From assembly GCA_964655785.1 (NCBI GenBank), contig CAZZNP010000002.1, positions 6,727 through 70,726 of the forward strand: a stretch of 64,000 bases of DNA. The letters run 5' to 3'. This DNA comes from an uncultured Gemmatimonadota bacterium. Lineage in GTDB: Bacteria; JAAXHH01. Positions 8,278-34,425 of the stretch are shown in pieces. The notes beneath the pieces were generated by a model. It saw only the letters and a list, made by a program, of their open reading frames with translations, did not search any database and was not told the origin of the DNA. Position 1 is the first letter of the stretch; each line of letters opens with the position of its first letter. The translations under genes were made by a program, and so were the position numbers.

Positions 8278-8318
8278 TGGGGGGGGACGGGCACCGTAAC
8301 TTCAGAACCTGAAAGGAA

Positions 8319-16256: not shown

Positions 16257-16278
16257 GAATCAACCCTGAGGAGTTACC

Positions 16279-17757
16279 ATGCCGAAGAACACCGAACCAG
16301 CATCCCTGGTGGGAGCGGATATACTGAACCTGGTTACAACCGGTATGTACCACACCCCACTTGCAATTTACCGGGAATACATTCAGAACTCGGCTGACGC
16401 GGTCGAAAAGTCCAAGTGGCGTGACCAGGGACGAGTAGAGATCTCAATCAATCCAGGAAGCAACAACGTCAAAATCAGGGACAATGGCCCTGGACTGTCA
16501 CCTGAACAGGCAATACGGAATCTGATACCAATTGCGAGGAGTTCCAAGCAGCGCGGTGTAGACCGCGGCTTCAGAGGAATCGGCCGGCTTTCAGGCCTAG
16601 CGTTCGCGGAAAAAGTTACCTTCAGAACGAGAAGCAAGAAAACACAGCCGATAACCGAGGTTTCCTGGGACGGAATATCCCTACGTGCGAATGCTGTCTC
16701 CAATTCGGATCCGGAAAAGATCATCAGAAACTGTGTACAGGTATCGGAAATAGATGACAGTGGATGGCCAAATAACTTCTTCGAAGTGGAGATTGAAAAA
16801 ATATCCAGATATGCGGCGGACAGGATCCTGAACCGAGAAGCTGTCCGAAGATATATTGCAGAGGTGGGGCCGGTTCCCATGTCAGAATCGTTTCCGCTTG
16901 CGAAGGACGTAGAGGCTCTCTTCCCGGATGAAAACAGACTTCTAGCACTGGAAGTCACCTTGGAAGGAGAGGAAGAGCCGATACGGCGCATGCATGGTTC
17001 CGGCCTCAAGTTTTCGGAAGACCGGAAGGATACCTTTAGGGAAATAGAAAGAATCAGAATTCCGGCTGTTGACAGCGAAAAAGATGCAGCAATCGGGTGG
17101 ATCGCTCACACATCATATCTGGGGGCAATCCCAAAAGACATGGGGGTACGAGGGATCCGGCTCAGAGAAGGGAACATACAGATCGGAGATGAAGACGTCC
17201 TAGATCCTCTGTTCAAGGAAGAACGCTTCAACAGGTGGTGCATAGGGGAATTACACGTGATCGATTCACGGCTCCTGCCGAATGGTCGCCGTGATTATTT
17301 CGACCCCAGCCCACACGTGAGACATGTTGAAAATCATCTTGAATCAATCATCCACGGGGTTGTGAAAAGATGTCGGAGTGCTTCATCTAACCGGGTACAG
17401 TCGAGGAAGCTACATACGGTACTGGAACACATGGACAGTGCATATAGTATTGCTGGCTCGGGTTATCTGAAAGCGGCAGACGCCAAGGCCCTCATAGCGG
17501 AAGCCCTGGAAAAATTGCAAGAGCTCGAAGACAACATGCCCGAAGGAGGCCTGATATATCAACAAAACGGGAAAAAGCTAATTGAACTCAAAACGAAACT
17601 GAACGGATTCAAACCAAGGAGAGGCCGGCCGTCCCTGGAAAACGTCCGCAGCGGGGAGGTTGCTACCTACCAGAGAATATTCAGGGCGCTGACGGAATTT
17701 TGCCATTCTCCGGCAATTGCCAAGGAGATGATCGAGGGAGTTCTAAAACACGCTTAG
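16279..17757 (+). CDS. GHKL ATPase (HATPase_c_3 / MORC-like)
   Basis: N-box REYIQNSADA, G1 box IRDNGPGLS and G2 box FRGIGRLSGLAF. 22-nt gap after the rSAM gene; same strand and composition. Confidence 0.75.
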   Translation: MPKNTEPASLVGADILNLVTTGMYHTPLAIYREYIQNSADAVEKSKWRDQGRVEISINPGSNNVKIRDNGPGLSPEQAIRNLIPIARSSKQRGVDRGFRGIGRLSGLAFAEKVTFRTRSKKTQPITEVSWDGISLRANAVSNSDPEKIIRNCVQVSEIDDSGWPNNFFEVEIEKISRYAADRILNREAVRRYIAEVGPVPMSESFPLAKDVEALFPDENRLLALEVTLEGEEEPIRRMHGSGLKFSEDRKDTFREIERIRIPAVDSEKDAAIGWIAHTSYLGAIPKDMGVRGIRLREGNIQIGDEDVLDPLFKEERFNRWCIGELHVIDSRLLPNGRRDYFDPSPHVRHVENHLESIIHGVVKRCRSASSNRVQSRKLHTVLEHMDSAYSIAGSGYLKAADAKALIAEALEKLQELEDNMPEGGLIYQQNGKKLIELKTKLNGFKPRRGRPSLENVRSGEVATYQRIFRALTEFCHSPAIAKEMIEGVLKHA

Positions 17758-17825
17758 CACAGTAGTTCCTGACTCGTGGTTCACGAGTTAATAAAACACC
17801 AATTCACCCCCAGGTAGTCGATTGC

Positions 17826-20132
17826 ATGGACAAAGAATATCTAACACCCATCATTGCAGGAGACGAGATCACGTCTGAACTTAGGCGAAGACGTAGCAAG
17901 GATAGATTTCAAACGATTAAAGCGACGAATAAAAGCCGTCTTGCTGAGAAAGTAAAGCTGGAAACGGAAGAAGGATGGAAAGTAGCAAAGAAAAACAAAA
18001 AATCTACCCGAATGGCGAAGGAAAAGCCGGGCGATGAACAACTGGAGGATGAAATCTGGTGCATGCTTGCACGGATGGGATTCAAGGAATTGAGCCATGG
18101 TCGTCAGTTCACAGTATCGGTAAGAGACGGCCAAAATCCAAGACAGATCGACGTATTCGCCAAGGATGACGAGACAACAATAATCGTCGAATGTACGCAT
18201 AGAAAAACACCAGGAAGAAAAAACATGTCCTCCCTGATTGAAAAGATACAGGCTATTAGAGGGGATACGATCAATTCAATCCGTAAGCACTATGGGAGGG
18301 AGAGTGCACTGAAGTTCGGGGCAGTAATCGCCACAAGGAATATAGATTGGAGCGAGGCCGATCTTGAGAAATGTGCAAATGCAAGAATTAGCGTACTTAC
18401 GGACGGTGAGATTGACTACTATAACGCATTGATAGCGCATCTGAAAAAAGCCGCCCGCTACCAGTTCCTCGCACATATCTTCGGAGGACAGAAAATTGAA
18501 GGACTGGTTACCACAGTACTCGCGACACGTGGAAAAATGGGGGGAAATTATTTTTATACATTCATGGTGAGTCCGGACGCACTTTTAAAAATTGCATATG
18601 TAGGACACAAGGCAAGCAGGGATACAGAGAACATAGAAACATATCAACGAATGCTGCAATCAAATCGGTTAAGGAAAATCGCGGAATACATTAATGAAGG
18701 TGGGAAATTTCCCACCAATATCGTCTTGAACCTGAAAACTAAGAAGAGGAACGACCTAAGATTCGAAGTGATCGAGAAACTTGGTAATGAAGCTCTCGGA
18801 AAATTGCATCTTCCACCGAATTACGCATCTGCTTGGGTCATCGATGGACAACACCGCCTCTATGGATACGCATATGCACGAGAAGGCGAAGGGTTCAAAG
18901 CGGACAAGACTACTCTACCCGTTTTGGCGTTTGAGAATCTGCCGTCAAAAGATGAAATGGACCTGTTCATCGATATTAACAGCAAGCAGGTAAAGGTAAG
19001 CACTAGTTTACTTGTGGAGCTCTATGCCGAGCTACACTGGGGCTCAGATGATTCCGATGAAGCATATGAAGCACTCTTGTCCAGGATAGCGTCAAAACTG
19101 AATTCCGAAAAAACGTCACCTCTTCGTGACAGAATGGTTGTCAGTGGAAAAAAGAAGACACCACACAGATGTCTGACACAAACGTCAATACGTGATGGAC
19201 TTGAAAAAGCTAAATTGATCGGATCCATGACAAAAGACGGATTCATCCCGGGACCTCTATCAACAGGCAAGCAAGACGCAAATCAGGAGCATTTAAAAAA
19301 GAGCGTATCAGTTCTGTCTGCCTGTCTGAATTTGTTTGCCGAACAGCTCAATGATCACTGGAATACAGGAGATGGCCCGGGTGGATATTTATGCACCAAT
19401 ATCGGAGTCAGAGCCATCTTTCATGTGATCAAGGACATAGCTGATCATTATCATCAAAAAAGTGGACATAACCTTTGTTACCTATCAACTGATGAAACAA
19501 TATCTACATTATCGCCATATTTACAAATATTGGTTGATTATTTCAAAGATGCATCCCCTCAGGAGATTCAGGATTTTAGGGGGATAGGATCTTCATTGGT
19601 GGCGGTTCGAAAACAATCATTCGGAATGGAAGCCCAAATTAACGAAAAAATAAATGAATTTTGCCCTGTAGAACTCAGAGAGTACCTAGATTCAAGGGAT
19701 GAAGCAGGAACACATGATGCGACAATATTGGTTAATCAAATACATTCGAAACTTTCAAAATATGTCATTGATACTTTGAAAAAAGAACACGGAGAAGAAA
19801 ACAAGGCATGGTGGACATTAGGAATCCCTAAAAATATTAGGATCGAATGCGCTAAGAAATGGGAAGAAGAAAACCGTAAAGGAGAGGAAGAAGGACAGCT
19901 ATTGTTGATCAACTACAAAGATATATGTCTCTTGAATTGGGAATTATTCAAGGACGTAATATCATTCGACGCTAGAGATAAAGAAAATAAAAGAGAAAAC
20001 ATAAAATGGATAATTGAATTGAATGAGATAAGAAGAATAACAGCCCATCCAGAAAGGGGAGTTCTAAATAAAGAGCAAGTGATAAAAGTCAATGAGATTT
20101 ATGAAAAACTGATTGAATATTTACCAGAATAA
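17826..20132 (+). CDS. DGQHR-domain (DndB-like, ParB-fold) protein with a possible N-terminal PD-(D/E)xK-like domain and a C-terminal HEPN-like Rx4H motif
   Basis: Exact DGQHR motif in WVIDGQHRLYGYAYA at the protein centre. The N-terminal region IDVFAKDDETTIIVECTHRK resembles a restriction-endonuclease-fold motif. C-terminal NEIRRITAHPERG fits the HEPN Rx4-6H signature. 768 aa, lowest G+C in the window. Confidence 0.7.
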   Translation: MDKEYLTPIIAGDEITSELRRRRSKDRFQTIKATNKSRLAEKVKLETEEGWKVAKKNKKSTRMAKEKPGDEQLEDEIWCMLARMGFKELSHGRQFTVSVRDGQNPRQIDVFAKDDETTIIVECTHRKTPGRKNMSSLIEKIQAIRGDTINSIRKHYGRESALKFGAVIATRNIDWSEADLEKCANARISVLTDGEIDYYNALIAHLKKAARYQFLAHIFGGQKIEGLVTTVLATRGKMGGNYFYTFMVSPDALLKIAYVGHKASRDTENIETYQRMLQSNRLRKIAEYINEGGKFPTNIVLNLKTKKRNDLRFEVIEKLGNEALGKLHLPPNYASAWVIDGQHRLYGYAYAREGEGFKADKTTLPVLAFENLPSKDEMDLFIDINSKQVKVSTSLLVELYAELHWGSDDSDEAYEALLSRIASKLNSEKTSPLRDRMVVSGKKKTPHRCLTQTSIRDGLEKAKLIGSMTKDGFIPGPLSTGKQDANQEHLKKSVSVLSACLNLFAEQLNDHWNTGDGPGGYLCTNIGVRAIFHVIKDIADHYHQKSGHNLCYLSTDETISTLSPYLQILVDYFKDASPQEIQDFRGIGSSLVAVRKQSFGMEAQINEKINEFCPVELREYLDSRDEAGTHDATILVNQIHSKLSKYVIDTLKKEHGEENKAWWTLGIPKNIRIECAKKWEEENRKGEEEGQLLLINYKDICLLNWELFKDVISFDARDKENKRENIKWIIELNEIRRITAHPERGVLNKEQVIKVNEIYEKLIEYLPE

Positions 20133-20173
20133 AATAGTGATTTCTAAAAATATCCCATACCCAACAATTCGTC

Positions 20174-20431
20174 ATGTCCATAAAGCCAACTGTTGAACAA
20201 CATGCCTGTTTGGTCAACGGAAAATTCATTTATTCCAGTTATCGGCACGCCCTCGCCGCGACCGATCCCCTGGCTTTCAAAGACAAAGAAAAGGGAAAGG
20301 AACGCAAGAGAGGGCATCGTACGTTCAAGAACAAGGGGCGTGTGACTATCGGGGAAAACGAATACAGACGCATCGATAACGGGCAGTCCCTAGGCAATCT
20401 GCTGGCAGATCTACTGGCTTTCAATAAATAA
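20174..20431 (+). CDS. Hypothetical small basic protein
   Basis: 85-codon ORF directly downstream of the DGQHR gene in the AT-richer island. No recognisable motif. Confidence 0.3.
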   Translation: MSIKPTVEQHACLVNGKFIYSSYRHALAATDPLAFKDKEKGKERKRGHRTFKNKGRVTIGENEYRRIDNGQSLGNLLADLLAFNK

Positions 20432-20464
20432 TCAGAACTTACTTAGCTTGGAAACAGTAAACCA

Positions 20465-21064
20465 ATGGAAGTAAATACTGGTATTGAGATCTGTCTTATC
20501 TCCTACTCGCAAATCATTACCGTTATGTCAACGGCAATAATCGCGGCATCGGCAGTAGTCACAGCCGTACTATCGTGGCGCCTCATATGTGATAACCGAA
20601 CTTTGGCCAAGGTGGGTACTGACCCGGAAGTGATTGCTCACTTGGCAGCAGACCCATTTCGACCCCTTGTCAATCTCGTTTTAGCAAATGTAGGGCGTGG
20701 TCCGGCAAAACAAGTTGAATTCGAACTTATTCTCGAAAAATCCCACTACGACCGCATTGTGCTGAGAAAGGAGCCAGATCGAAAGCCATTTGGATTCCTA
20801 CTTCAGGGAGAAAAAACAGAAATGCTATTTGGCGACCATAGAATGTTTGGAACGGGAGATGAGCGAGCAAAGAACGCGTTACAACCATTTCAAATTAAAA
20901 TTAAGTGGCAAAACCTCAGAGGGAAAAAGTTTGAAGAAAAATATATTCTAGATGTACGTCAGTTTCTCGGACTCCCACCGAACAGTTCCCTATACTCTCC
21001 TCTTTCAAAAATTGCCGATTCATTGGCTAAGATCGAAAAAACGATATCCCGCAGGAACTCTTGA
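20465..21064 (+). CDS. Hypothetical membrane-anchored protein (single N-terminal TM helix)
   Basis: N-terminal hydrophobic segment IITVMSTAIIAASAVVTAVLSW followed by a soluble domain. Last gene of the AT-richer island. Confidence 0.4.
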   Translation: MEVNTGIEICLISYSQIITVMSTAIIAASAVVTAVLSWRLICDNRTLAKVGTDPEVIAHLAADPFRPLVNLVLANVGRGPAKQVEFELILEKSHYDRIVLRKEPDRKPFGFLLQGEKTEMLFGDHRMFGTGDERAKNALQPFQIKIKWQNLRGKKFEEKYILDVRQFLGLPPNSSLYSPLSKIADSLAKIEKTISRRNS

Positions 21065-21148: not shown

Positions 21149-21691
21149 CTACAGCAGCCGATAGATGCTGGCCCGGCTAAGTTCATACTTTTCCGCTAGG
21201 TCCCGGATCCGGACGCCGGCGGCGCGCTCACGGCGAAGCTCGGCAACCTGGCCCTTGGTGAGTTTCGAGGGAGGGCCGAATCGCACCCCCTCGTTACGGG
21301 CCCTCGAGATTCCTTCCGCCTGGCGCTCTTTCCGGAGGTGCACCTCGAACTCGGCGACAGCGGCCAGTATCCCGAATACGAGCTTGCCGGCCGAGGTCGT
21401 GGTGTCGATCGCCTGGTCGAGCACGACGAAGCCGACGTCGTTTTCCTGCAACTGCTCGAGGATCCGGTGCAGGTCCAGGGTAGAGCGCGCCAGGCGGTCG
21501 AGACGGGTGATCACCAGAACGTCGCCGCGGCGGACGAACCGGAGACATTCCTTCAGCGCCGGCCGGGCCGCGGTCCGTCCGGAGCGTTTCTCCTGGAAGA
21601 TCTCATCGCAGCCGTATTCCTGGAGTTTCTCGAGCTGCAGGTCCAGGTTCTGTCCGATGGAGCTGACCCGGGCATATCCCACTGTCGCCAT
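21149..21691 (-). CDS. Serine recombinase (resolvase/invertase, Hin-Gin-Tn3 resolvase family)
   Basis: N-terminal catalytic VGYARVSSIGQNLDLQ, the RLDRLAR motif and a C-terminal HTH (GVRIRDLAEKYELSRASIYRLL). Confidence 0.85.
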   Translation of the reverse strand: MATVGYARVSSIGQNLDLQLEKLQEYGCDEIFQEKRSGRTAARPALKECLRFVRRGDVLVITRLDRLARSTLDLHRILEQLQENDVGFVVLDQAIDTTTSAGKLVFGILAAVAEFEVHLRKERQAEGISRARNEGVRFGPPSKLTKGQVAELRRERAAGVRIRDLAEKYELSRASIYRLL

Positions 21692-21820
21692 GTCTCATAA
21701 TGTCTTGAGGTAGTGAGACTGCAATTATAAGACGACTTATAAGACGGTCATATCCCTGATTTCGGACCGTCTCGTAAAGTGTACAATGTAAGACACGTAA
21801 TATGCTGGCGTCTTGAGACT
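21691..21820. promoter_or_regulatory. Candidate res/recombination site: cluster of inverted repeats built on GTCTC/GAGAC and AGACGG cores upstream of the recombinase gene
   Basis: TGTCTCA (21691), GTCTTGAG (21702), TGAGACT (21714), AAGACGAC (21729), AAGACGGTC (21741) paired with GACCGTCTC (21765), AAGACACG (21790) and GCGTCTTGAGACT (21808). Confidence 0.4.
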
Positions 21821-21870
21821 CCCAGCACCGTGGGGCTACACTAGGAATCTTTCGTTACAGGAAAACAGCC

Positions 21871-22485
21871 ATGGCCACCAAGGCGGCAACGAAGGCTATG
21901 CCAAGGGCTACCTACCAGGACGTCCTCGATGCACCACCGCACAAGGTAGCGGAGGTCATTGAGGGAACCCTGTATCTGAATCCAAGACCGGCGTCCAGAC
22001 ATACCAGGGCAAGTTCTGTTCTTGGCAGTAGTATCGGGACGCCCTACGACTATGACAGAAATGGTCCCGGTGGATGGTGGATCCTCGACGAGCCGGAGCT
22101 GCACCTCGGCGAGGACATCCTGGTGCCCGACTTGGCGGGGTGGCGCCGGGAGCGGATGCCGGAATATCCTGATGTGAAATTCTTCACCCTGGCGCCGGAT
22201 TGGGTATGTGAAATTCTCTCCCCGTCTACGAGGGCGATCGATCAGGGCCTGAAGCGTGCAATCTACGCCCGGGAAGGGGTGACATGGCTCTGGTTCGTCG
22301 ACCCCGACGTCCGCACTCTGGAGGCCTTCGAACTGCGTGATGGCCAATGGCTTCTCCTGAAAACCCTGACCGAGAGTGATGCAGTGTCCCTGCCCCCGTT
22401 CGAAGCGATCAGTTTCAGTCTCGGGGATCTGTGGCCCTACAGTGGTGAGAAATCCGTTTCCGAAAATGGAGAGGAGGTGACCTGA
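21871..22485 (+). CDS. Uma2-family (DUF820) endonuclease
   Basis: Uma2 signature layout: EVIEGTLY near the N-terminus, VPDLAGWRRERMPE, and the catalytic-region motifs PDWVCEILSPST...D...K...YAREGV.W.WFVDP. Confidence 0.7.
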   Translation: MATKAATKAMPRATYQDVLDAPPHKVAEVIEGTLYLNPRPASRHTRASSVLGSSIGTPYDYDRNGPGGWWILDEPELHLGEDILVPDLAGWRRERMPEYPDVKFFTLAPDWVCEILSPSTRAIDQGLKRAIYAREGVTWLWFVDPDVRTLEAFELRDGQWLLLKTLTESDAVSLPPFEAISFSLGDLWPYSGEKSVSENGEEVT

Positions 22486-22956: not shown

Positions 22957-25900
22957 TCAGTCAAACAGATCACGTCCCCCATGTGTAGGGGGCCCGGTTT
23001 CTACCGGCACTGCCTGATCCGGCAGCAAGCCGGAGACGATCTCCTCGATTTCCCGGCCAGCGTCACTTGAGTGGACAGCGGCTCGAATCGCCTTTGATAT
23101 GCCAACCTGGCTCATCCCGGGTTTCCCTGCAAGGGCTTCACTGGCTGCCTCCTGTGCCAGTTTCTCGGTTTCCTCGCACAGCTTCGCCAGTCGCCGGTGT
23201 TGATCGATATCTTTGTTGAAACAGGGTATCGGGACCTTCCACCACGGATGAAGATGAAAGTCCCTGCCGCTCCCTCTGCATTGCCTGAAGGCCGTTTCCA
23301 GGCATGCGGCATTCAGCAGGGCAACCAGATATCCGGCTTCTTCCTTGTCCCGCACAGCCATCCAGTAAAGTTTCGAGCTCACAACAAAATTGCCAGTCGT
23401 TATCCTTGCAGCCCGCATGATGTCCCCGGAGGTTGGATAGAGAACAATCCATCCGTTGGTGTTTTCAGAGTCGAGTTGTGCCGACAGCTTTGACTGGAAA
23501 TCGAATTGCTTAAGTAAGGCCTTCGGCGTCGATTTCCCCTTTCCTGCCCTGCTTTCGTAGATCTCGTCCAGTTCACGCCAGAATGAACATTCATTGCCGG
23601 GGTTCTCAAGCAAGAATCCCTTTGTGTCCACCGGCACGATGCCCTTCACAGGCCGCACCGGGGGGATGTACGCCACCATCTCGGTTGAAGTAAGAACCGG
23701 ACGTACCCAGTGTGCCGGCATCAATCCGGTCTGGGGCCTGACCTCTTTCCACGGTTCCTTTGTCGATCGCATTGTCGTGACACGGACCATGCCTTCATGA
23801 TTCGGTCCTTCGATTTCATCCAACAGCGCAAGCACGTGGGGAACCAGTGTCGCGCCCTGCTTAATCATGACCGAATTCAGATATCCGGACTTCTTCTGCG
23901 GAAGCTGGGCGGGAGCCTCGCTGAATCCGAATTTCCGCCTGGCCGATTCCAGGGACTCTGATGACTTCGGACGTACGCCCCTGACCTTCAGCCGGGCTTC
24001 CAGTGTGCCGGGGCTGATGCCTTCGGATATATCGAACGCACAGTGCTCCATCAGTAGGCAACTGCGGGTTGCATCACCGCTACCGAATGGCTGCAACTGC
24101 TCCAGGTCGACCGATTGCCGCAAGGTGTTTCGATGAACTGACCGGAACGGCTCCCATTGCCCAGCAGCGATGGCGGATTTCTTCACCAGCCAGGATGCGG
24201 GGTTGCTCTCCGGTTTGGCCATGTAAAGCTTCCTGGCCGCCAGAATGAAATAGCTGGCGATATCGGAGTGAGGGGCCTGTTTCCCGGCACCGGTCAGACC
24301 CAGAGACCTGCCGTACTGTTCCAGAGTTCTCTTCCGGTCCGTGGCCTGTATCTCCGCCAGCTTCACCCAGGGTGGATTGGCCACGATCCGATCGACCTTT
24401 TTCTGTGCCAGAAGGTGGGGAGCGGCGATGTTGATCGTGTACCAGGTCCAGACCGAGTTGCCCTCGGCAGCAATGATCTCGGTCAGGGCCTGGTGGCAAT
24501 GTTCCAGCCGCTCGGATTCCACTTCCGACAGGGATTCCTTCAGGAACCCGGGCAATGGTTGACCCGCGGTCGCGGCACTGACAATCTCACGCATGTCGTT
24601 GGCAAACGTCCCTCTCCGGACGAATTTCATGGGGACCCGTATCTCCCTTTTTTCCGGAGTCTCGACCCTCATCAGGTCCTCGGTGTGTTCGAACAGGGAC
24701 TTCTGGTTTCCGGAATCGGCCTGCAGAGAATCACCCAGGTGCACCTGGAACGACTGGCCGCCCATGGTCGGCGGCGCCGGCAGGATCCTCTCCAGGTTCA
24801 CGCGTGCGAGTTCCACTGCCACGGGATGGATGTCGATCCCGTTGACCAGGCGTGAAACGATGTCGGCCCGCTGCACCGGTGTGAATGACTGCATTGACTT
24901 TGACGCCAGCAAACGGCGGGCCGCATGGAGAAGGAACGTGCCGGAACCGCAGGTGGGGTCGAGAACCCCGACTCCCCGAACTTCCGTACCACCGCGGATG
25001 GAGGCTATCGCGGCATTGATGGCCCGCTCCATCCATTGCTCGTCGAGAACCTCCTCCACCATCAGTGCAGCCAGCCAGTCCGGGGTGTAGAATTCACCGA
25101 AGACCTTCCGATCATGCGCGCTCACGTTATGATGGTACAGGCTGCGCAGGACATCTTCCTCGCGCCTCCGCCAGTCGTACGAGGTAACAAGCCTGTACAG
25201 TTTCCCTGCCCACTTCCGCCCACGCTCGAATTCCAGCACCCATGCGGCGAAACCATCACGTACCGCCGTCTTCCAGTCCGAACCCGAATTGGCCGGAAAC
25301 AGGGAGTGGGAAACCAGGCGGACCACTGCGATCAGGAAGCTGTGGGTGACGAACAGCCTGTCCTTCCCGGCTTCGTCGCCGGGAACCATGCCGGACGTTC
25401 GCATCATGTCCAGCCAGAGATCCCTTTTGGTCCGGGTAGGTCCTGCTGCATTAGCGGGAAGCGCAGCGTAAAGGCTGAAGAGTTCATTCCTGAGGGAGGT
25501 GAAGAGTGCTCCCGGATCCCCCGGTATCCACTCCTTGCCGAAATTCCTTTCGGCCAGAAGCGAGTGGAGGAATTCGGCCAAGGGAAGGGCCTCGTTCATG
25601 AATCTCAGGGGCGATCCGACAGGTTCCCCGATGGATTGAGGCCGATGGCTGTATTCATACACGTGCCAGTGCCGGCCGTCGGTCACAATGCCCACCCAGT
25701 TGCTCCGGACGAACTCAACGTCGTCGAAGGGAATCCTGCCCAATTCCCGGTTGATCTCGCCGATGACGTAACGGTCCAGCTGTTGCCGCGGCGACTCCGA
25801 CAGCCTTCCTTGCTGGGGTTTGTCAGGCTCTGCCGCCAGCGGATATGCCTTCAGCTCGATGAATGTCCTGCGATTGGGCAGATAAATGTCCGCCTCGCCG

Positions 25901-26067
25901 TCAACAGTCGTGTAGTGGGATTCGATCGACCCGACCTTGATTTCCCGAAGCAGGGCCTCAAGATCGGACTGCAGGTTGCCTTCCCTTTCGTGCCGCTCAA
26001 GGGGGTGGTTGAGAAACGCGGATGCAGCATCGAGGACTGCCTGACCCGGTGGCTTGCCCCGGGTCAT
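22957..26067 (-). CDS. Type IIG (MmeI-like) restriction-modification enzyme: N-terminal PD-(D/E)xK nuclease, gamma-class N6-adenine methyltransferase and C-terminal target-recognition region
   Basis: N-terminal D-x10-ELK (GEADIYLPNRRTFIELKAY). MTase motif I GVLDPTCGSGTFLLHAA and motif IV IVANPPWVKL. A 1036-aa single polypeptide. Confidence 0.8.
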   Translation of the reverse strand: MTRGKPPGQAVLDAASAFLNHPLERHEREGNLQSDLEALLREIKVGSIESHYTTVDGEADIYLPNRRTFIELKAYPLAAEPDKPQQGRLSESPRQQLDRYVIGEINRELGRIPFDDVEFVRSNWVGIVTDGRHWHVYEYSHRPQSIGEPVGSPLRFMNEALPLAEFLHSLLAERNFGKEWIPGDPGALFTSLRNELFSLYAALPANAAGPTRTKRDLWLDMMRTSGMVPGDEAGKDRLFVTHSFLIAVVRLVSHSLFPANSGSDWKTAVRDGFAAWVLEFERGRKWAGKLYRLVTSYDWRRREEDVLRSLYHHNVSAHDRKVFGEFYTPDWLAALMVEEVLDEQWMERAINAAIASIRGGTEVRGVGVLDPTCGSGTFLLHAARRLLASKSMQSFTPVQRADIVSRLVNGIDIHPVAVELARVNLERILPAPPTMGGQSFQVHLGDSLQADSGNQKSLFEHTEDLMRVETPEKREIRVPMKFVRRGTFANDMREIVSAATAGQPLPGFLKESLSEVESERLEHCHQALTEIIAAEGNSVWTWYTINIAAPHLLAQKKVDRIVANPPWVKLAEIQATDRKRTLEQYGRSLGLTGAGKQAPHSDIASYFILAARKLYMAKPESNPASWLVKKSAIAAGQWEPFRSVHRNTLRQSVDLEQLQPFGSGDATRSCLLMEHCAFDISEGISPGTLEARLKVRGVRPKSSESLESARRKFGFSEAPAQLPQKKSGYLNSVMIKQGATLVPHVLALLDEIEGPNHEGMVRVTTMRSTKEPWKEVRPQTGLMPAHWVRPVLTSTEMVAYIPPVRPVKGIVPVDTKGFLLENPGNECSFWRELDEIYESRAGKGKSTPKALLKQFDFQSKLSAQLDSENTNGWIVLYPTSGDIMRAARITTGNFVVSSKLYWMAVRDKEEAGYLVALLNAACLETAFRQCRGSGRDFHLHPWWKVPIPCFNKDIDQHRRLAKLCEETEKLAQEAASEALAGKPGMSQVGISKAIRAAVHSSDAGREIEEIVSGLLPDQAVPVETGPPTHGGRDLFD

Positions 26068-26208
26068 ATTTCCGCACCGCCGGCAGTGTGCGGGGTACCG
26101 AGTCCTGAATTGTCGGCCGACCCTCCGGCGTCATGGGCGCCGGTGACGTGAAATTGATGGGATTGACTGGAAGGAAGTCGGGAACCGGGTTCAGCCGCTA
26201 CATATAAT

Positions 26209-26272
26209 CGGACCTGCGGACCTGCGGACCTGCGGACCTGCGGACCTGCGGACCTGCGGACCTGCGGACCTG
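26209..26272. repeat. Perfect tandem repeat, 8 copies of the octamer CGGACCTG
   Basis: Read directly: (cggacctg)x8 at 26209-26272, ~140 bp upstream of the Type IIG gene start. A TATAAT-like hexamer sits immediately adjacent at 26203-26208. Confidence 0.95.
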
Positions 26273-26333
26273 CCCTTCTTTTAGCCTACCATGTTCCGCT
26301 GCAGCTGTCATTTTCGATTTACCGCATTCCTGG

Positions 26334-26633
26334 TCAAATGAAACCACGGGCCGCGGCGGGGTGCTTGAACAGATGCTCATACAGATCCAGCTTCCTGTCC
26401 ATGTAGTGGTCCGCGGGGCTGGGAAACCCCGTCGTCACGATGCCGGGGAAGCAGGGAATCCGATAGGACGTGGCGGAAAGGCGGTCGCCCAGATATTCCA
26501 GTTTCATCGCTTCAATCCGTTCAGAATGATCATTCGCAGCGGCACAGGGAATCCGCCAGTCCGGAAGAGGAGTTGTACCGGCGTGGTTGCCGGCCGTCAA
26601 GTCATCGATGCTCCAGGGCTTCTGCTGCCACAT
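26334..26633 (-). CDS. Hypothetical small protein downstream of 26647-26952 (possible two-gene operon or frameshifted single gene)
   Basis: 99-codon ORF, 13-nt gap from the previous stop, in a different frame. Confidence 0.3.
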   Translation of the reverse strand: MWQQKPWSIDDLTAGNHAGTTPLPDWRIPCAAANDHSERIEAMKLEYLGDRLSATSYRIPCFPGIVTTGFPSPADHYMDRKLDLYEHLFKHPAAARGFI

Positions 26634-29075: not shown

Positions 29076-29906
29076 TCATCTGGAAGCCCCGAAAGAGCCG
29101 CTGATCATGTCCCGTAGGAATACGCCGCCGACCTCTTCGTGATTCGGGCCATAGAAACGCCCCTGGATGCCCGTACCGCTGAACACGCCGGAGTCGTCGA
29201 TGGGCAGTCCATCCCATTCGATCGAAGGACGGGTAATGCCGGTGGAGGTGTACGCGATGTCCGTGAAGGACACGTCGATGGCCGGAAGATTGAAATCCGG
29301 AATATCCAGTTCTGCAGAACCATCGACTCGCTGGCCAATGGTGTCGCTCATGGAGACGTCCACCCCAACCATGATCCCATTCCATGAAGCGCCCCCGGAT
29401 ACTGGCCTGGAGTCACTCGCCTTGCCGATTGACCAGGTGGCAACACCCCATGATTGATCGTCGATCATGGATTCACTGGCAACCAGGTCCTCAAGGATGT
29501 TGTGGTTATTCCTGACATAGAACATGCTGTACTCCATCCAGCCGGCATAGTCGCGGTAATCCGTCCGGGTGGTCTGAGTCAGGCTGCCGACGACCGGCTT
29601 GGGGCCGGTCTGAAAAATGGCTTCGGCCCTGTGAACACCGGCTTCAATGCCAAGATACTCGAGAGAACGAGAGAAGATGACATCTGCCTGGAAGCCGTTG
29701 CTGAAGCTGGTTCCCCCAAGTTGCCATTGATTGGCGTTCCGCGAGGTGATGCCTGCGTGGATGACCGTATCTGCAGCACCAGCCAGTTCCAGGATGGAAT
29801 CGGAAATGTCATCGGAACTCAGATGGGTTGATTTGGCCCCTCCCCCGCAACCGGCGAGGGATATGGCTGCAAGAAGGGTCAGAATTCTTCCTGGATTGGT
29901 AAGCAT
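29076..29906 (-). CDS. Surface-lipoprotein-type protein with a TbpB/fHbp-like C-terminal 8-strand beta-barrel handle domain
   Basis: Signal peptide and lipobox MLTNPGRILTLLAAISLAGCGG (start at 29906, GGAG RBS). C-terminal GIQGRFYGPNHEEVGGVFLRD...SGSFGASR matches the handle-domain end motif of Slam-dependent lipoproteins. Confidence 0.6.
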   Translation of the reverse strand: MLTNPGRILTLLAAISLAGCGGGAKSTHLSSDDISDSILELAGAADTVIHAGITSRNANQWQLGGTSFSNGFQADVIFSRSLEYLGIEAGVHRAEAIFQTGPKPVVGSLTQTTRTDYRDYAGWMEYSMFYVRNNHNILEDLVASESMIDDQSWGVATWSIGKASDSRPVSGGASWNGIMVGVDVSMSDTIGQRVDGSAELDIPDFNLPAIDVSFTDIAYTSTGITRPSIEWDGLPIDDSGVFSGTGIQGRFYGPNHEEVGGVFLRDMISGSFGASR

Positions 29907-30277
29907 GGATTGACTCCGGTTGATTCTGGATATCCCGGCGCAAAATGGTGCCGGGCCGTGCTTACCAACGCACGTTGAGGTGCCCTGCCTATTCGTCCGG
30001 AGCGGGTCATGACTCCCTCCCCTTGATGGACTGTTGTATTCAACAGGCGACCCGACTCGGGGCGCGCGTTGGTAAGTGGGTGGAACTGTATCACCGGATC
30101 GGAAATTATTCATCTTGCTTGTCCTTGAATGATTGGGTTTGGATTCATATGCATCCAGGGGGAATTGCCACATCCATGATGCGACAGATTGGACTAATAC
30201 GAGGTCGGTCAGATTCTCGGTGGCGAGCGCCGGACTGGGCGGGACTGTTGTCAGCATCTCCATGCGCAGGCGCCCGA

Positions 30278-33200
30278 TCATCGCCGGGCACCACAACGGT
30301 TGATAATTTCGGAACTAAGGCTGAAGCACAGACGCGGGCCACAGGTAAGGATCAAAGGATTCAGGTGAGGCAAGGTATACTGCTGTGGCTGCTGAATGTT
30401 TCTGCCATAAAAATTGGCTCCGTTCGGTCCAACCACTTCGTAGATACTCCAGATTCCGCATGACGACCCTGAGTCAGCAAAAAACAGCAGTTCATTGATG
30501 TTGTAAACGGAAGAATCGCTGCAGTCTCCGGGTTGTGTGTGACTGTAACTGGCATAATCCAGTCCTCTACGCTGGGTGACGCCCACGGAAACCCGGATTC
30601 CCATGCTGTAATCCCAGGTTTCAGCCCCGCAAAATGCAGTGCATGTACTGGCATTCCAACCTGCTCTCGGATCCAGGTCGTCCGGACGTGGGCATACTGG
30701 TGGCGGCGCCGCGTCGTTGTCCCGGACGGTGACGGACGCAGACGAACGCGATCCCACGGTGTAACCGCTTCCGACGGCGATCAGAGCCCCGACCTGCCCG
30801 TCCGGCTCGTCGTTCGCATCATCCACGGTGGGAACGGAGTACGTGACAACTGTGTGCCTAGCGGGAAGAGTAACGGCGTTCGGTCCTTCGACGGACGATG
30901 CCAGGAAATCCGAAGTCGCGTCATCCGACACGGTCAGGCCAATGACGATGGGCGCGGCGGATCCCAGGCTGGCCTCGAGGGTGAATACCGCATTGCCACC
31001 TTCGGTGACGGGGACACCGCCCCTGATGCTGATTTCAGGCGTGCTTGGGGGCGCCGCGTCATTGTCCCGGACGGTGACGATGGCGGACGACGGGGAGCCT
31101 GTCGTGAAGCCGCTGCCGCCCGTGATCCTGGCCGAGACCTGGCCGTCCGGCTCGTCGTTCGTATCATCGATGGTGGGAACGGAGTACATAGCGATCGTGC
31201 TCCCTGCGGGCAGCGTGACGGTACTGGGGCCTTCGGTCGAAGACGCCAGGTAATCGGAAGTGGCGTCATCGGAAACATTCAGGCCGATAGTGATTGCCGC
31301 GGTGGACGTCCGGTCGGCCGTGACGGTGAAGACCGCGTTACCGCCCTCGGTCACCGAGACGCCCCCGCGGATGGTGATTACGGGCAAGACAGGGGACGCC
31401 GCGTCATTGTCGTGGACGGCGACGGTGGCGGACGACGGGGAGCCTGCCGTGTAGCCGCTGCCGCTCGCGATCCTGGCCGAGACCTGCCCGTCCGGCTCGT
31501 CTGCACTGTCGTCCTCTGTGCGTACGGAATACGTGGCCGATCTTGCTCCCGCCGGAAGTGTGACGGACTTGCGCCCCTCGCTGGTCGATGCCAGGAAATC
31601 GGAAGCGGCGTCATCCGAGACGTCCAGGCTGACGCTGATGGCCGTGGCGGATGCCCGGCTGGCACGCAGGGTGAACGCCGCAGTGCCGCCCTCGGTGACA
31701 GCACTGCCCCCGGTAATGGTGATTGCGGGTATCGCCGGCAGCGGCGCATCGTTGTCCCGGACGCTGACGTACGCGGACGAGGGAATACCGGTGGTGTAGG
31801 AGGAGCGCCCGGTAATCCGGACAGTGACCCGCCCGTCCGGTTCATCGGTGGTGTCATCCACCGTGGGCACGGAATACCGCACCGTCGTGGCCCCTGCAGG
31901 AAGGGTCACGCTTCGGTGACCCTCGCTGGACGATGCCAGGAAATCGGAGGTGGAGTCATCCGAGACGTCCAGGCTGACGCTGATGGCCGTGGTGGAGGCC
32001 CGACTGGCCCGCAGTGTGAACACCGCGTTGCCGCCCTCGGTGACGGCGCTGCCCCCGGCGATGGTGATTACGGGCTTGACGGACGGCGCCGAATCGTTGT
32101 CCCTGACGATGATGGACGCGGAGCGCGATCCGATGGTGTAGCAAGGGGAACCGACGATGCGCACCGTGATGATCCCATCCGGCTCGTCGACGCTGTCGTT
32201 TTCCGTGAGCACGGCGTACGTGGCCGATCTCCCCCCCGCCGGCAGGCTGACGGTCTTGCGGCCTTCCGCGGACGCTGCCAGGAAATCGCCCGAAGCATCA
32301 TCCGAAACGTCCAGGCTGACGCTGACGGCCGAGGCGGACGTCCTGTTCGCCCGTATGGTGAACGAGGCCCTTCTTCCCTCGACGATCGCACCGTGGCCGC
32401 CGATGCTGATCACGGGTTTCGGGGACGGCGTTCCGGGGCAATCGTTGTCGCTGATGCCGACGGACGCGGATTCGGGCGCGTAGGGGACATAGCCGGATCC
32501 GCTCAGGACGCGCGCGGTGACCTGCCCGTCCGGTTCGTCGATGGCGTCATCCACCGTCGGCACGGTCCAGGTGACGGAGGAGGTCCCGCCGGGGAACGTG
32601 ACGGTCTTCCTGCCTTCGTCCCCCGCCGCCACGAAATCCGCCGACGCATCGTCCGAAACGGAAAGCGCGACGGTCGCCGCCGAGGAAAAGGGAACCGTGG
32701 GCCTGAGCGTGAAAACCGCATTGCCGCCTTCCGTGACCGCACTTCCTCCGGTGATGGAGACGCCGGGCACGGCCGGGGGCAGCGTCGGAGGCGGGAGCGT
32801 GTCCGTCGGGCTCCAGGCGACGCAGGACGGGACGCCGCCGCTGATGGCGAGCAGCTGGTCCGGACTGCAGTTGAGGCCCGCCAGCCGGACGAGGAACCGG
32901 GCGCGGTCCCGGTCGAGGACCTCCCCGCCGATGACGAGCCGCTCGTTGATCAGGAATCTGTCGACGTCCTCGATATCGTTGCCGCCCAAATTGAGATCGC
33001 CGGCCATGTCCCGGGTGCCGTCCCGGACGAGCAGTTCCTGGACCCGGTCGCCGGGCTCGTGTCCGGGGATCGGGATCTCGATCTCGACGACGGATGTCGT
33101 CCCCGCCCTCGCCTGCCCGGGAAATTCGGATCGCACCTCGGCGGCGAGCCGTGCATCCAGCAGGTCGGTCCGGATGACGATCGGCAACGTCGGGTGGTTG

Positions 33201-33553
33201 GGCGGTGTTGGCGCATCCAGTTCAAGCAACTGCCCCACGCCGTTGCGGGCGTTGGCCGCCAGGACCGGGGCCAGGGCGGAGAGGTCGGACATGGAGGAAG
33301 GCCAGGTGTTGTTGTTCTCGAGGCGCCAGGAATACAGAACCTCCGCAGTTGCGATGATGATATCACGGGTGCTGTCGACCTTTGCTTTCTCCAGTTCGCC
33401 GAGTTCCCTGTGGTACCAGGCGGCGACCATGAGGGACACGACCAGGGCCGCGCCGGTGGCGGCGAGCAGGGCGAAACCGCGCTGCCGGCCGAGCGGGCCG
33501 GTGGAGCCGGTTTCGATGTTGCGGGACACGGATGGGTCATGTGATGGTTTCAT
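30278..33553 (-). CDS. pilV: PilV-like type IVb minor pilin/adhesin, long variant with eight Calx-beta-like repeats and a Cys-rich C-terminal domain
   Basis: N-terminal region paralogous to the upstream short PilV-like protein (MKPSHDPS...RGFALLAATGAALVVSLMV, then ...EIEIPIPGHEPGDRVQELLVRDGTRDMAGDLNLGGNDI...). Eight ~100-aa repeats each contain ...TEGGNAVFTL...SDD..SDF...VP(T/I)(V/I)DD..DEPDG.V(T/S)(A/V)R. The ORF-track N-terminal extension to 34132 was rejected because it overlaps the upstream gene. Confidence 0.6.
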   Translation of the reverse strand: MKPSHDPSVSRNIETGSTGPLGRQRGFALLAATGAALVVSLMVAAWYHRELGELEKAKVDSTRDIIIATAEVLYSWRLENNNTWPSSMSDLSALAPVLAANARNGVGQLLELDAPTPPNHPTLPIVIRTDLLDARLAAEVRSEFPGQARAGTTSVVEIEIPIPGHEPGDRVQELLVRDGTRDMAGDLNLGGNDIEDVDRFLINERLVIGGEVLDRDRARFLVRLAGLNCSPDQLLAISGGVPSCVAWSPTDTLPPPTLPPAVPGVSITGGSAVTEGGNAVFTLRPTVPFSSAATVALSVSDDASADFVAAGDEGRKTVTFPGGTSSVTWTVPTVDDAIDEPDGQVTARVLSGSGYVPYAPESASVGISDNDCPGTPSPKPVISIGGHGAIVEGRRASFTIRANRTSASAVSVSLDVSDDASGDFLAASAEGRKTVSLPAGGRSATYAVLTENDSVDEPDGIITVRIVGSPCYTIGSRSASIIVRDNDSAPSVKPVITIAGGSAVTEGGNAVFTLRASRASTTAISVSLDVSDDSTSDFLASSSEGHRSVTLPAGATTVRYSVPTVDDTTDEPDGRVTVRITGRSSYTTGIPSSAYVSVRDNDAPLPAIPAITITGGSAVTEGGTAAFTLRASRASATAISVSLDVSDDAASDFLASTSEGRKSVTLPAGARSATYSVRTEDDSADEPDGQVSARIASGSGYTAGSPSSATVAVHDNDAASPVLPVITIRGGVSVTEGGNAVFTVTADRTSTAAITIGLNVSDDATSDYLASSTEGPSTVTLPAGSTIAMYSVPTIDDTNDEPDGQVSARITGGSGFTTGSPSSAIVTVRDNDAAPPSTPEISIRGGVPVTEGGNAVFTLEASLGSAAPIVIGLTVSDDATSDFLASSVEGPNAVTLPARHTVVTYSVPTVDDANDEPDGQVGALIAVGSGYTVGSRSSASVTVRDNDAAPPPVCPRPDDLDPRAGWNASTCTAFCGAETWDYSMGIRVSVGVTQRRGLDYASYSHTQPGDCSDSSVYNINELLFFADSGSSCGIWSIYEVVGPNGANFYGRNIQQPQQYTLPHLNPLILTCGPRLCFSLSSEIINRCGARR

Positions 33554-33567
33554 GGGTCTGGTCGGGA

Positions 33568-34425
33568 TCATGGCGATGTCGGCGGACAGGCGGGCGGCGG
33601 CGGACAGGGAGGGCACGGGCAGAGCGCGCCGCAGGTCGCACAGGACGGGGACCAGCAGGACGCCGTGGTGCCGCTGATGGTCACTCCGGTGGCGCAGCCG
33701 AGGCCGGCCGCGCCGTTCAGGAAACGGACGATGTTCGGGGAGACGGGATTGCCGCCGATCTCGACTTCGGTGTTGACGCGCACCTCTTCGGCGTTGCTGA
33801 TGTCGTTGGTTGCAAGGCCGAGGTCCCCGGTCATGTCCCGGGAGCCGTCGAGGCGAAGGAGCGAGTCCCTGGCGGGCTCGTGTCCCGGGACGGGAACCTC
33901 GATGGATACGACGCTCCCGGTCCTTGTCGCCAGGCCCAGGAACTCCCGCTCGAGGAGTTCGGCGAAGTCCGCATCCTCCATGTCCGTCTCGATGACGATG
34001 GGGGCGTTCGAAGTCGCCGGCGTCGGCACACGGAAGGAGTATGGCTTGCCAACGCCGTTCCGGCCTCCCGGGGGCGTGGTATTGGCGAAAGCGGGTGCGT
34101 AGGCGGCCAGGGCTGCGAAGTCGGCGGGCCATGCAGCCGGCTCCGGTGGCGTCTGCGATGGAAATTCGCTGATGCGGTATGCGGAAACGGCCTCGGCCAG
34201 GATCAGCATGCCCGCCCGGGTATTGTCGATCTGTGCGCTGGCGAGGGACCGGTCGAGTTCCCGGGTGAACAGACCCACCAGCATGGCGGTCACGAACAGG
34301 ACGGCGGTCGCCTCGATGAGGCTGAAGCCGCCTTGACGGGAAAGGAGGGAAAGGCGGAATCGGTACGGGTCGGCCGTGGACTGACCAACCGGCGATGCGC
34401 CGGTGCTGGGGTGGCTCCGGTTCAT
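33568..34425 (-). CDS. pilV: PilV-like type IVb minor pilin (short variant) with a prepilin-type N-terminus
   Basis: Prepilin cleavage/methylation motif QGGFSLIEATAVLFV. The central domain ...SIEVPVPGHEPARDSLLRLDGSRDMTGDLGLATNDI... is shared with the long variant. Confidence 0.65.
   Translation of the reverse strand: MNRSHPSTGASPVGQSTADPYRFRLSLLSRQGGFSLIEATAVLFVTAMLVGLFTRELDRSLASAQIDNTRAGMLILAEAVSAYRISEFPSQTPPEPAAWPADFAALAAYAPAFANTTPPGGRNGVGKPYSFRVPTPATSNAPIVIETDMEDADFAELLEREFLGLATRTGSVVSIEVPVPGHEPARDSLLRLDGSRDMTGDLGLATNDISNAEEVRVNTEVEIGGNPVSPNIVRFLNGAAGLGCATGVTISGTTASCWSPSCATCGALCPCPPCPPPPACPPTSP

Follow-up and report, generated by a model that had tools for sequence, protein, structure and literature searches.

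An octanucleotide tract upstream of a restriction-modification (R-M) gene in the window (the whole 64-kb stretch of DNA analyzed here) appears to be a simple-sequence repeat that is genuinely hypermutable and lies in the region controlling a mobile, Type IIG-like R-M gene, and it is probably a mutational dial on this defence gene. That the length of the tract changes R-M expression in one way or another we consider somewhat better than an even bet. The specific reading that we prefer, to which we give a rough probability of 0.35, is that the tract would form the self-folding 5′ end of the R-M leader and be faced by an antisense unit, with its length tuning expression. The features on which the description is based are as follows.

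26209–26272, minus strand: octanucleotide tract of eight perfect units, CAGGTCCG x8 on this strand and CGGACCTG x8 on the plus strand (Tandem Repeats Finder, regular-expression search and direct reading)
26068–26208, minus strand: leader of 141 nt, from the tract to the R-M ATG (alignment of six haplotypes and reading frames)
22957–26067, minus strand: gene of 1036 aa for a Type IIG-like fused restriction endonuclease-methyltransferase (open reading frame, PADLOC, Pfam and motifs)

Tandem Repeats Finder applied to the window reports the array at 26209–26273 with a period of 8, 8.1 copies, 100% matches and a score of 130, and both a regular-expression search and direct reading give precisely eight copies of CGGACCTG on the plus strand at 26209–26272, the unit being read as CAGGTCCG on the strand of the R-M gene. 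The R-M ATG lies 141 nt downstream of the tract end, and the first-pass annotation of this DNA, which described a perfect array of eight 8-bp units about 140 bp upstream of the R-M gene, is borne out; so is its association of a simple-sequence repeat with an R-M gene, with a perfect repeat lying beside a Type IIG-like gene. No other tandem array with a unit of 2–9 bp is present in the window at four or more copies (five or more for units of 2–3 bp), and the sole homopolymer run of at least eight is a G8 at 8279–8286. Eight perfect tandem octamers cannot have arisen by chance, and because the tract is present in independent assemblies from several samples it is not an artefact of a single assembly.

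The length of the tract varies among its relatives. It is assembled end to end in the window at 64 bp (8 units), and is bridged at 63 bp in L003 (a 7-bp CAGTCCG unit and 7 full units), at 71 bp in L002 (the 7-bp CAGTCCG unit and 8 full units) and at 135 bp in L004 (the 7-bp CAGTCCG unit and 16 full units). L002 and L003 have identical R-M proteins and leaders and their tracts differ by one unit, and the flanks adjacent to the tract are identical among the 63-, 64-, 71- and 135-bp alleles over 16 nt upstream and 27 nt downstream. Features expected of a contingency locus are therefore present: a perfect, slip-capable repeat of a short unit, reaching 16 full units plus the 7-bp unit in relatives, and a copy number that differs between close relatives. 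The comparison of copy number among related strains that had been suggested in the first-pass annotation thus reveals variation, although it is drawn from short-read assemblies, which may collapse tracts. Five other assemblies break or have a gap within the tract, with breaks in four scaffold assemblies (L005/L079, L006/L074, L071) and an N-gap in L070, and the Logan contigs L001, L072 and L078 reach about 30 bp into it before ending. These interruptions may be an indirect sign of length heterogeneity inside single populations. Where a contig ends in the tract it holds 56–65 bp of it, consistent with k=55 assemblies, and the bridged lengths of 63 and 64 bp equal 55+8, the size produced by a k=55 de Bruijn assembler after one turn of the repeat cycle, so that 7–8 units may be a lower bound; the lengths of 71 and 135 bp are not explicable by this effect. 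That short-read assemblies break at this octamer locus or may collapse it is also a practical warning.

A second line of evidence comes from the sequences beside the tract. The leader of the window allele shares 71–76% identity with those of the other alleles, a divergence of 24–29% that predicts about 15 differences per 60 bp. The units of the tracts nevertheless match exactly when the window is compared with the other alleles, except that alleles other than that of the window lack 1 nt of the first unit. A perfect tract beside so diverged a leader indicates continuing slippage, with ongoing gain and loss of units homogenizing the array, as the first-pass annotation had proposed.

The tract appears to be part of an R-M cassette. 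All of the close R-M homologs from other metagenomes that were traced to contigs (89–93% amino acid identity) carry the octamer tract, and in each of these alleles 141 nt separate the tract from the ATG, including those with a different upstream context. The upstream limit of the cassette is defined by the following features.

26322–26324, no strand: left boundary of the R-M cassette (blastn onset of homology with relatives in other contexts)
26334–26633, minus strand: truncated umuD-like open reading frame of 99 aa, ending about 10–12 nt before the cassette boundary

In blastn comparisons the match to L003 begins at window position 26324 and that to L070 at 26322, with entirely different sequence further upstream, and thus the tract and about 50 nt upstream of it move with the gene. 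Residues 59–95 of the umuD-like product match residues 15–51 of UmuD (PDB 8gmt_B, E=4.8e-5), and its match to NCBIfam PRK10276 (1.8e-6) is under the curated cut-off; the frame stops at the position of UmuD residue ~55 and the remainder of UmuD is absent. R-M homologs at 69–70% identity (L073, L075 and L076) have no upstream repeat, and a simple-sequence repeat upstream of the gene is found at 0/80 distant homolog loci from JGI metagenomes, the few short runs at these loci lying inside or after the matched gene; these two sets rule out the upstream repeat as a recurrent trait of the enzyme family. An exact search for the downstream tract junction gave no match among JGI metagenome contigs and viral contigs, and a search of plasmid DNA for further alleles gave none either. 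The octamer itself occurs elsewhere, at 63 loci with at least three units (3–13, perfect) in species-representative genomes, but these are not copies of this locus, as the flanks at the 18 that were inspected are unrelated and all are in unrelated taxa. Judging from these alignments, the tract is a slippage-prone repeat within the control region of a mobile R-M cassette itself.

The product of the R-M gene is matched by the PADLOC model REase_MTase_IIG (E=2.4e-34) and scores above the cut-off for the Pfam families N6_Mtase and Eco57I. Its translation contains a nuclease motif (D60..E71-L-K73) together with DPTCGSGTF and NPPW, all of which are invariant across an alignment of 15 sequences; the protein is thus a single chain with an N-terminal PD-(D/E)xK motif and the motifs of a gamma-class N6-adenine methyltransferase, as expected of Type IIG enzymes. 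Similarity to MmeI is weaker: Pfam MmeI_Mtase reaches 19.8 bits where its cut-off is 27, the MmeI structure (PDB 5hr4) gives a weak sequence match (E=8e-4 over ~90 residues), and with a poor AlphaFold model (pLDDT 61.7) the top Foldseek match is MmeI at a non-significant level (E=0.03, TM 0.2). We accept the description Type IIG-like, with membership of the MmeI family as a possibility only. The window is a conjugative element, encoding a PFL_4706-type TraC, type IVB pilus proteins and ParB, with defence-type cargo close by (a DGQHR protein, Uma2 and a resolvase). The closest named relatives of the TraC share 57–64% identity and are from Gammaproteobacteria metagenome bins; TraC proteins of known plasmids share 32–36% at most.

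Several candidate signals flank the tract at short distances.

26283–26311, minus strand: candidate cassette promoter P_up, −35 hexamer ATGACA at 26311–26306 and −10 hexamer TAGGCT at 26288–26283 (pattern scan and conservation)
26203–26208, plus strand: perfect TATAAT immediately adjacent to the tract and directed into it, on the strand antisense to the R-M gene
26182–26208, minus strand: 27-nt block ATTATATGTAGCGGCTGAACCCGGTTC (alignment of six haplotypes and reading frames)
26276–26282, plus strand: U-run TTCTTTT, two nt past the tract on this strand, terminator-like with the tract hairpin

First, the P_up hexamers are separated by a spacer of 17 nt that ends in TGG (TG at 26291–26290), and the predicted start is at about 26277–26275, i.e. 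3–5 nt before the tract. A pattern with a −35 matching at least 5/6, a spacer of 16–18, TGn and TAnnnT has one occurrence in the 128,000 positions of both strands of the window, and this is P_up. The hexamers and the TG are retained in three sequence variants in which the spacer varies, and all five differences between the window and L003 in this region fall in the spacer. The −10 hexamer has only 3/6 consensus matches and a stricter scan with a promoter tool did not call P_up; both P_up and the reverse TATAAT are consensus matches identified after the fact. Secondly, the TATAAT at 26203–26208 is one of six perfect copies of this hexamer on both strands of the 64-kb window, and at a 17-nt spacer it is preceded by GGGAAC in the window (2/6 matches to a −35) and by GTGAAC in relatives (3/6). 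The 27-nt block is invariant in the five alleles that cover the whole of it, and L006, which covers the last 13 nt, is identical there too; its plus strand reads GAAC, 17 nt and TATAAT, so that it includes part of the −35. The block also contains TAG (26200–26198) and TGA (26193–26191) in two frames, and a near-palindrome, TGAACCCGGTTC. Thirdly, the U-run belongs to a class of heptamers (at least six T) found about once per 1000 positions in the window, and its flank is invariant in all alleles. Plus-strand RNA from 26214 to 26290 has a predicted fold of −29.0 kcal/mol (z=−3.2), one long hairpin because CUGCGG self-pairs via G.U pairs, ending 2 nt before UUCUUUU; the sense RNA has z=−1.3. The tract hairpin and the U-run resemble an intrinsic terminator for an antisense transcript, and with the TATAAT added the set resembles a short antisense RNA unit that faces P_up, with its promoter, hairpin and terminator. 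Each of the three flanking signals (P_up, TATAAT and U-run) is rare in the window, the sequence of which is 61.5% G+C.

The mechanism that we propose draws these signals together. Transcription from the cassette promoter (ATGACA, 17 nt ending in TGn, TAGGCT) would start 3–5 nt before the tract, and the repeat would constitute the first 64 or more nt of an R-M leader of about 210 nt; the octamer tract is thus predicted to be transcribed within a 5′-UTR, in the style of the hmw genes (see below). Once transcribed, the repeat would pair with itself to give a hairpin that grows, by about 4 kcal/mol, with each added unit. On the opposite strand, the TATAAT and the U-run that bracket the tract would specify a short antisense transcript with the repeat as its body, aimed at the forward promoter and predicted to run from about 26214–26216 to about 26282. 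Gain or loss of a unit would then change the length of the 5′ hairpin, the extent of sense-antisense overlap and the distance between the face-to-face promoters, and the level of R-M expression could thereby be set in a graded or threshold manner, closer to the hmw repeat than to a −35/−10 spacer. Since the tract lies between ATGACA-17-TAGGCT and the reverse TATAAT, the idea in the first-pass annotation that a change in unit number alters the spacing of promoter elements survives in this modified form. Against length-tuning we note that no link from tract length to expression emerges from the computations, with flat accessibility of the R-M start and background levels of pairing with the leader, and that because sense and antisense RNAs change together, slippage might have little effect.

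These computations concern the leader and the start of the R-M gene, where three further features are predicted.

26135–26194, minus strand: C-rich, G-poor, rut-like stretch (C 26, G 9 here; C 22–24, G 10–11 in relatives)
26122–26146, minus strand: conserved leader hairpin, CCGGCG..CGCCGG here and CCGGCATC..GATGCCGG in relatives (RNAalifold)
26042–26066, minus strand: hairpin UGACCCGG..CCGGGUCA, starting at the U of the R-M AUG (minimum-energy folds)

Among the six haplotypes the leader has 46 variable sites and 0 indels, and one of its frames is without stops and ends in ATGA at the R-M start. An excess of C over G of at least 12, as in the rut-like stretch, is seen in just 2.6% of 60-nt segments of the window. 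In the leader hairpin one pair is preserved through changes on both sides (RNAalifold), and the hairpin at the AUG is present in the predicted minimum-energy fold of every allele but is not significant against shuffles; the R-M Shine-Dalgarno sequence is weak (GGTG/GGGG). A structured leader is rejected, as the stability of the single-sequence fold is that of shuffled sequences (z=0.15) and the RNAalifold covariation terms are ~0. Pairing of the repeat with the leader, as in hmw, is likewise rejected, the energies of −44 to −51 kcal/mol being equalled by a fraction of 0.20–0.44 of random 161-nt segments of the window. Nor does the tract appear to occlude the R-M ribosome-binding region, the predicted accessibility of which is the same with any number of units between 0 and 18, because the tract pairs with itself, contributing about −4 kcal/mol for each unit. 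No Rfam family matches the window at its gathering score, the match close to the locus being at chance level, and tRNA genes are absent from the window. No conserved promoter candidate is seen within the leader, either in a tool scan of the window, L003, L004 and L070 or on inspection of the six-haplotype alignment. An invertible promoter, suggested by the neighbouring resolvase, is not indicated, with no convincing inverted repeats around the region.

The flat accessibility is also what would be expected if the repeat did no switching at all, which we regard as a real possibility though on the unlikely side. The self-complementary repeat may be only the stem of a terminator or of an antisense hairpin, or it may be a neutral hitch-hiker with no role, and in either case its length variation would be a tolerated by-product of slippage. 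A tract that folds on itself at any length while predicted access to the R-M start is unchanged, a hairpin and U-run on the plus strand, and an octamer that expands readily, as its perfect tracts at unrelated loci demonstrate, are all in keeping with this explanation. It accounts less well for the maintenance of the tract at a fixed position in all alleles of the clade through 24–29% leader divergence and moves between contexts, for the presence on its flanks of three individually improbable signals, and for a frame architecture like that of an upstream open reading frame.

This last feature is the basis of the main rival reading, unlikely but as concrete as the promoter-distance idea, and one that is absent from the first-pass annotation.

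26198–26311, minus strand: candidate upstream open reading frame of the window allele, with ATG at 26311, 13 codons, the tract and DYM-stop, 37 aa (predicted OFF frame)

The frame starting with ATG 26311 reads through the repeat, and because the unit is 8 bp, copy number decides the frame in which it exits. In the open frame, ribosomes would cover the C-rich leader and reach the R-M start (translational coupling and protection from Rho), and in the other two the leader would be bare and the gene OFF. The ATG and its 39-nt spacing to the tract are retained, free of indels and stops, in three variants. Beyond the tract, two frames stop after 8 and 15 nt (TAG and TGA), and the third is open for 47 codons to a TGA that overlaps the R-M ATG (ATGA), in six of six haplotypes and in a leader that is free of indels despite its many variable sites. 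In L002 (71 bp) there is a continuous open reading frame, 3031–3354, ending in ATGA at the R-M start; in the window (64 bp), L003 (63 bp) and L004 (135 bp) the upstream frame exits into the two stop frames. The rut-like stretch after the early stops, the weak R-M Shine-Dalgarno sequence and the AUG inside a predicted hairpin count in its favour, and Rho attenuation that depends on an upstream open reading frame is established elsewhere (PMC12360218). The conserved start and the stop overlapping the downstream start are therefore present, but a ribosome-binding site and evidence of coding are not: the ATG has no Shine-Dalgarno sequence, though other genes of the element use one, and no frame has a coding signature, with variable sites distributed 19/15/12 by codon position and no third-position excess. 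ATG 26311 also forms part of the −35 hexamer of the best promoter candidate, and would thus lie outside that transcript. The openness of the frame over five haplotypes is at most suggestive (P ~0.06–0.11 by column shuffling), a second frame is nearly open as well, and the reading frame is not called by gene callers.

In a variant of the antisense scheme, which we consider quite unlikely, an antisense RNA gene complete in itself and hypermutable would have the repeat as its body, with the TATAAT firing into the tract. The (CGGACCUG)n transcript would be a single long G.U-stabilised hairpin ending at UUCUUUU, atop the start of the facing R-M promoter, and slippage would set the length of the antisense RNA and its terminator as well as the spacing of the face-to-face promoters. 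If true, this would be a contingency locus operating via convergent transcription, and not by a frameshift or a −35/−10 spacer.

TAAA repeats upstream of nadA in Neisseria meningitidis act as a distal promoter spacer, and by analogy the R-M promoter could lie inside the 141-nt leader, with the tract shifting how far, or on which face of the helix, an upstream element lies from it. An 8-bp unit is about three quarters of a helical turn, such that the phase would shift with each unit, and there is an A-rich flank, CTAAAAGAA, just upstream of the tract; we nonetheless find this very unlikely, as the tool scan of the window, L003, L004 and L070 and inspection of the six-haplotype alignment show no conserved promoter-like site in the leader, and the sole strong forward candidate sits upstream of the tract. 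A version based on the first-pass annotation, in which the repeat changes the distance between the −35 and −10 elements of the R-M promoter and the neighbouring TATAAT serves as the −10, is almost certainly wrong: a perfect TATAAT does adjoin the tract, but it is on the strand opposite the gene (the gene strand reads ATTATA), between the tract and the gene and directed away from the latter, and so cannot be the R-M −10 element, and tracts of 63–135 bp exceed any 16–18-bp spacer of the gene's own promoter. Mechanisms beyond those listed take the remaining probability.

With respect to known systems, the closest analogue by position and behaviour is the repeat of hmw1A and hmw2A of Haemophilus influenzae, a 7-bp (ATCTTTC)n repeat in the 5′-UTR that is transcribed, forms a long RNA hairpin and exerts graded control, pairing with a downstream G-rich region and with RNase III processing shown (PMC12721329). 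Shared with it are a unit that is not a multiple of 3, a position upstream of the open reading frame and not inside it, many copies and large length variation. It differs in that the octamer pairs with itself, with pairing to the leader at background level and no long hairpin between the repeat and the downstream region, and in that an R-M enzyme is encoded here, by a conjugative element from an uncultured bacterium. In terms of the gene, the nearest counterpart is cj0031c of Campylobacter jejuni, where a homopolymer run of G within the coding sequence forms the repeat and shifts the frame of the enzyme itself. Both loci encode a single-polypeptide restriction-methylation enzyme with a hypermutable simple-sequence repeat, but here the octamer is 141 nt upstream of an intact reading frame. 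The cj0031c enzyme is a phase-variable Type IIG protein, the switching of which alters methylation, transcripts and phage restriction (PMC4889913).

In a phasevarion survey of Type I and Type III R-M genes, which counted octanucleotide units, the repeats considered are within hsd or mod reading frames only (PMC7383803). The octamer tract has in common with these a perfect array of short units not divisible by 3 that is linked to an R-M gene, but it is outside the R-M reading frame, which is intact (1036–1037 aa) in all alleles; the classical architecture with the repeat in the coding sequence does not apply, as in-frame stops separate the tract from the R-M ATG. In attenuation by Rho and translational coupling that depend on an upstream open reading frame, translation of that frame responds to a physiological signal (reviewed in PMC12360218). 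The likeness is in a short frame ahead of a C-rich leader with its stop overlapping the downstream start (ATGA), and the difference is that here the state would putatively be set by a heritable frameshift in the repeat. The RepG system is similar in having a length-variable leader repeat that is targeted by a base-pairing RNA, but RepG is trans-encoded and its repeat is a homopolymer, whereas here the putative antisense RNA is cis-encoded and made of the repeat itself. Antisense RNAs transcribed from reverse promoters in the EcoRI R-M system reportedly modulate its expression, in work by Mruk, Liu, Ge and Kobayashi that appeared in Nucleic Acids Res in 2011. Promoters firing against the direction of the R-M gene are common to the two systems, although the EcoRI reverse promoters are inside the coding region and have no repeat.

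Repeat-driven R-M switching is known mainly from host-adapted pathogens, with the repeat normally inside the coding sequence of the enzyme. The locus described here departs from these cases in that the octamer lies outside the reading frame and is carried along by a Type IIG cassette that resides on a conjugative element, and in that its control region is densely populated with predicted signals (a forward promoter, a reverse TATAAT, a U-run and frames like those of an upstream open reading frame). The predictions of the two concrete models are opposed, with a period of three units expected from an upstream open reading frame and a monotonic or threshold dependence on length from a hairpin or antisense RNA. 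Should tract length indeed set expression, restriction could be low or off when a mobile element arrives in a new host, and the state of its defence could diversify within a population.

The truncated umuD gene directly upstream of the R-M cassette (the Type IIG-like restriction-methyltransferase gene with its leader and octamer tract) seems to be the point at which the cassette was inserted. Residues 59-95 of this ORF align with UmuD residues 15-51, a stretch that covers the GFPSPA cleavage-site region. The reading frame stops at a position equivalent to UmuD residue ~55. In one contig with a close R-M allele (L070) an extra 1.5 kb separates the umuD remnant from the cassette, and contains ORFs of 119 aa and 176 aa on the opposite strand. 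A Uma2-family nuclease and a serine recombinase adjoin the R-M gene in all contexts examined (the window, L002, L004, L070 and L071); inverted repeats bounding an invertible segment were sought near the recombinase and R-M genes, and none were found. The features in and around the cassette, and a homopolymer elsewhere in the window, are as follows.

8279-8286: G8 homopolymer, just beyond the 3' end of a ParB-like ORF (8319-10448, minus)
14604-16256: 550-aa protein without family matches
16279-17757: HSP90-like ATPase
17826-20132: DGQHR/DndB-DpdB-like protein, in a low-G+C region
21149-22485: Uma2-family nuclease (PADLOC PDC-S03) and resolvase/invertase-type serine recombinase
25997-26134, minus (3284-3421 in L002): 45-aa ORF, with its ATG inside the conserved leader hairpin
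26334-26633, minus: truncated umuD, 99-aa ORF

The HSP90-like and 550-aa protein genes lie just upstream of the DGQHR/DndB-DpdB-like gene, the G+C content is low (0.34-0.48) across 18000-21000, and the segment from 14604 to 21000 looks like a separate defence module adjoining the cassette.

Within the leader, the invariant block downstream of the tract contains a near-palindrome, TGAACCCGGTTC (26182-26195, minus), in place of which the relatives have the complete 13-bp palindrome TGAACCCGGTTCA; this element could be an operator for some regulator. The 45-aa ORF extends across the R-M start in a different reading frame. Its window and L002 versions are equally long, but the portion of the peptide encoded upstream of the R-M gene shows poor conservation, and the ORF is probably not a genuine gene.

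The G8 run is the only other repeat-like run (homopolymer of at least 8) in the window. On a larger scale, a 1284-aa ORF (30278-34132, minus) contains 4.1 copies of a 345-bp unit with 74% matches (30705-32112) and probably encodes a repetitive surface protein; the adjoining ORF (29076-30296) has a weak match to a TbpB-type lipoprotein barrel.

Short-read assemblies systematically stop or gap within the octamer tract (L001, L005, L070, L071, L072, L074, L078 and L079); Logan contigs carry ~30 bp of repeat at the breaks, and the scaffold assemblies carry 56-65 bp. The copy numbers of the tract in public data are therefore unreliable, and the element is fragmented at this position in metagenome bins.

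The octamer itself, CAGGTCCG, is partly self-complementary, and forms perfect arrays of 3-13 units at 63 loci (L007-L069) in unrelated high-G+C genomes, including Acidovorax delafieldii 2AN (13 units), Exilibacterium tricleocarpae (10 units) and many in Streptomyces. At the 18 of these loci that were inspected the flanks are unrelated to the R-M locus, and the octamer appears to expand repeatedly and independently across genomes.
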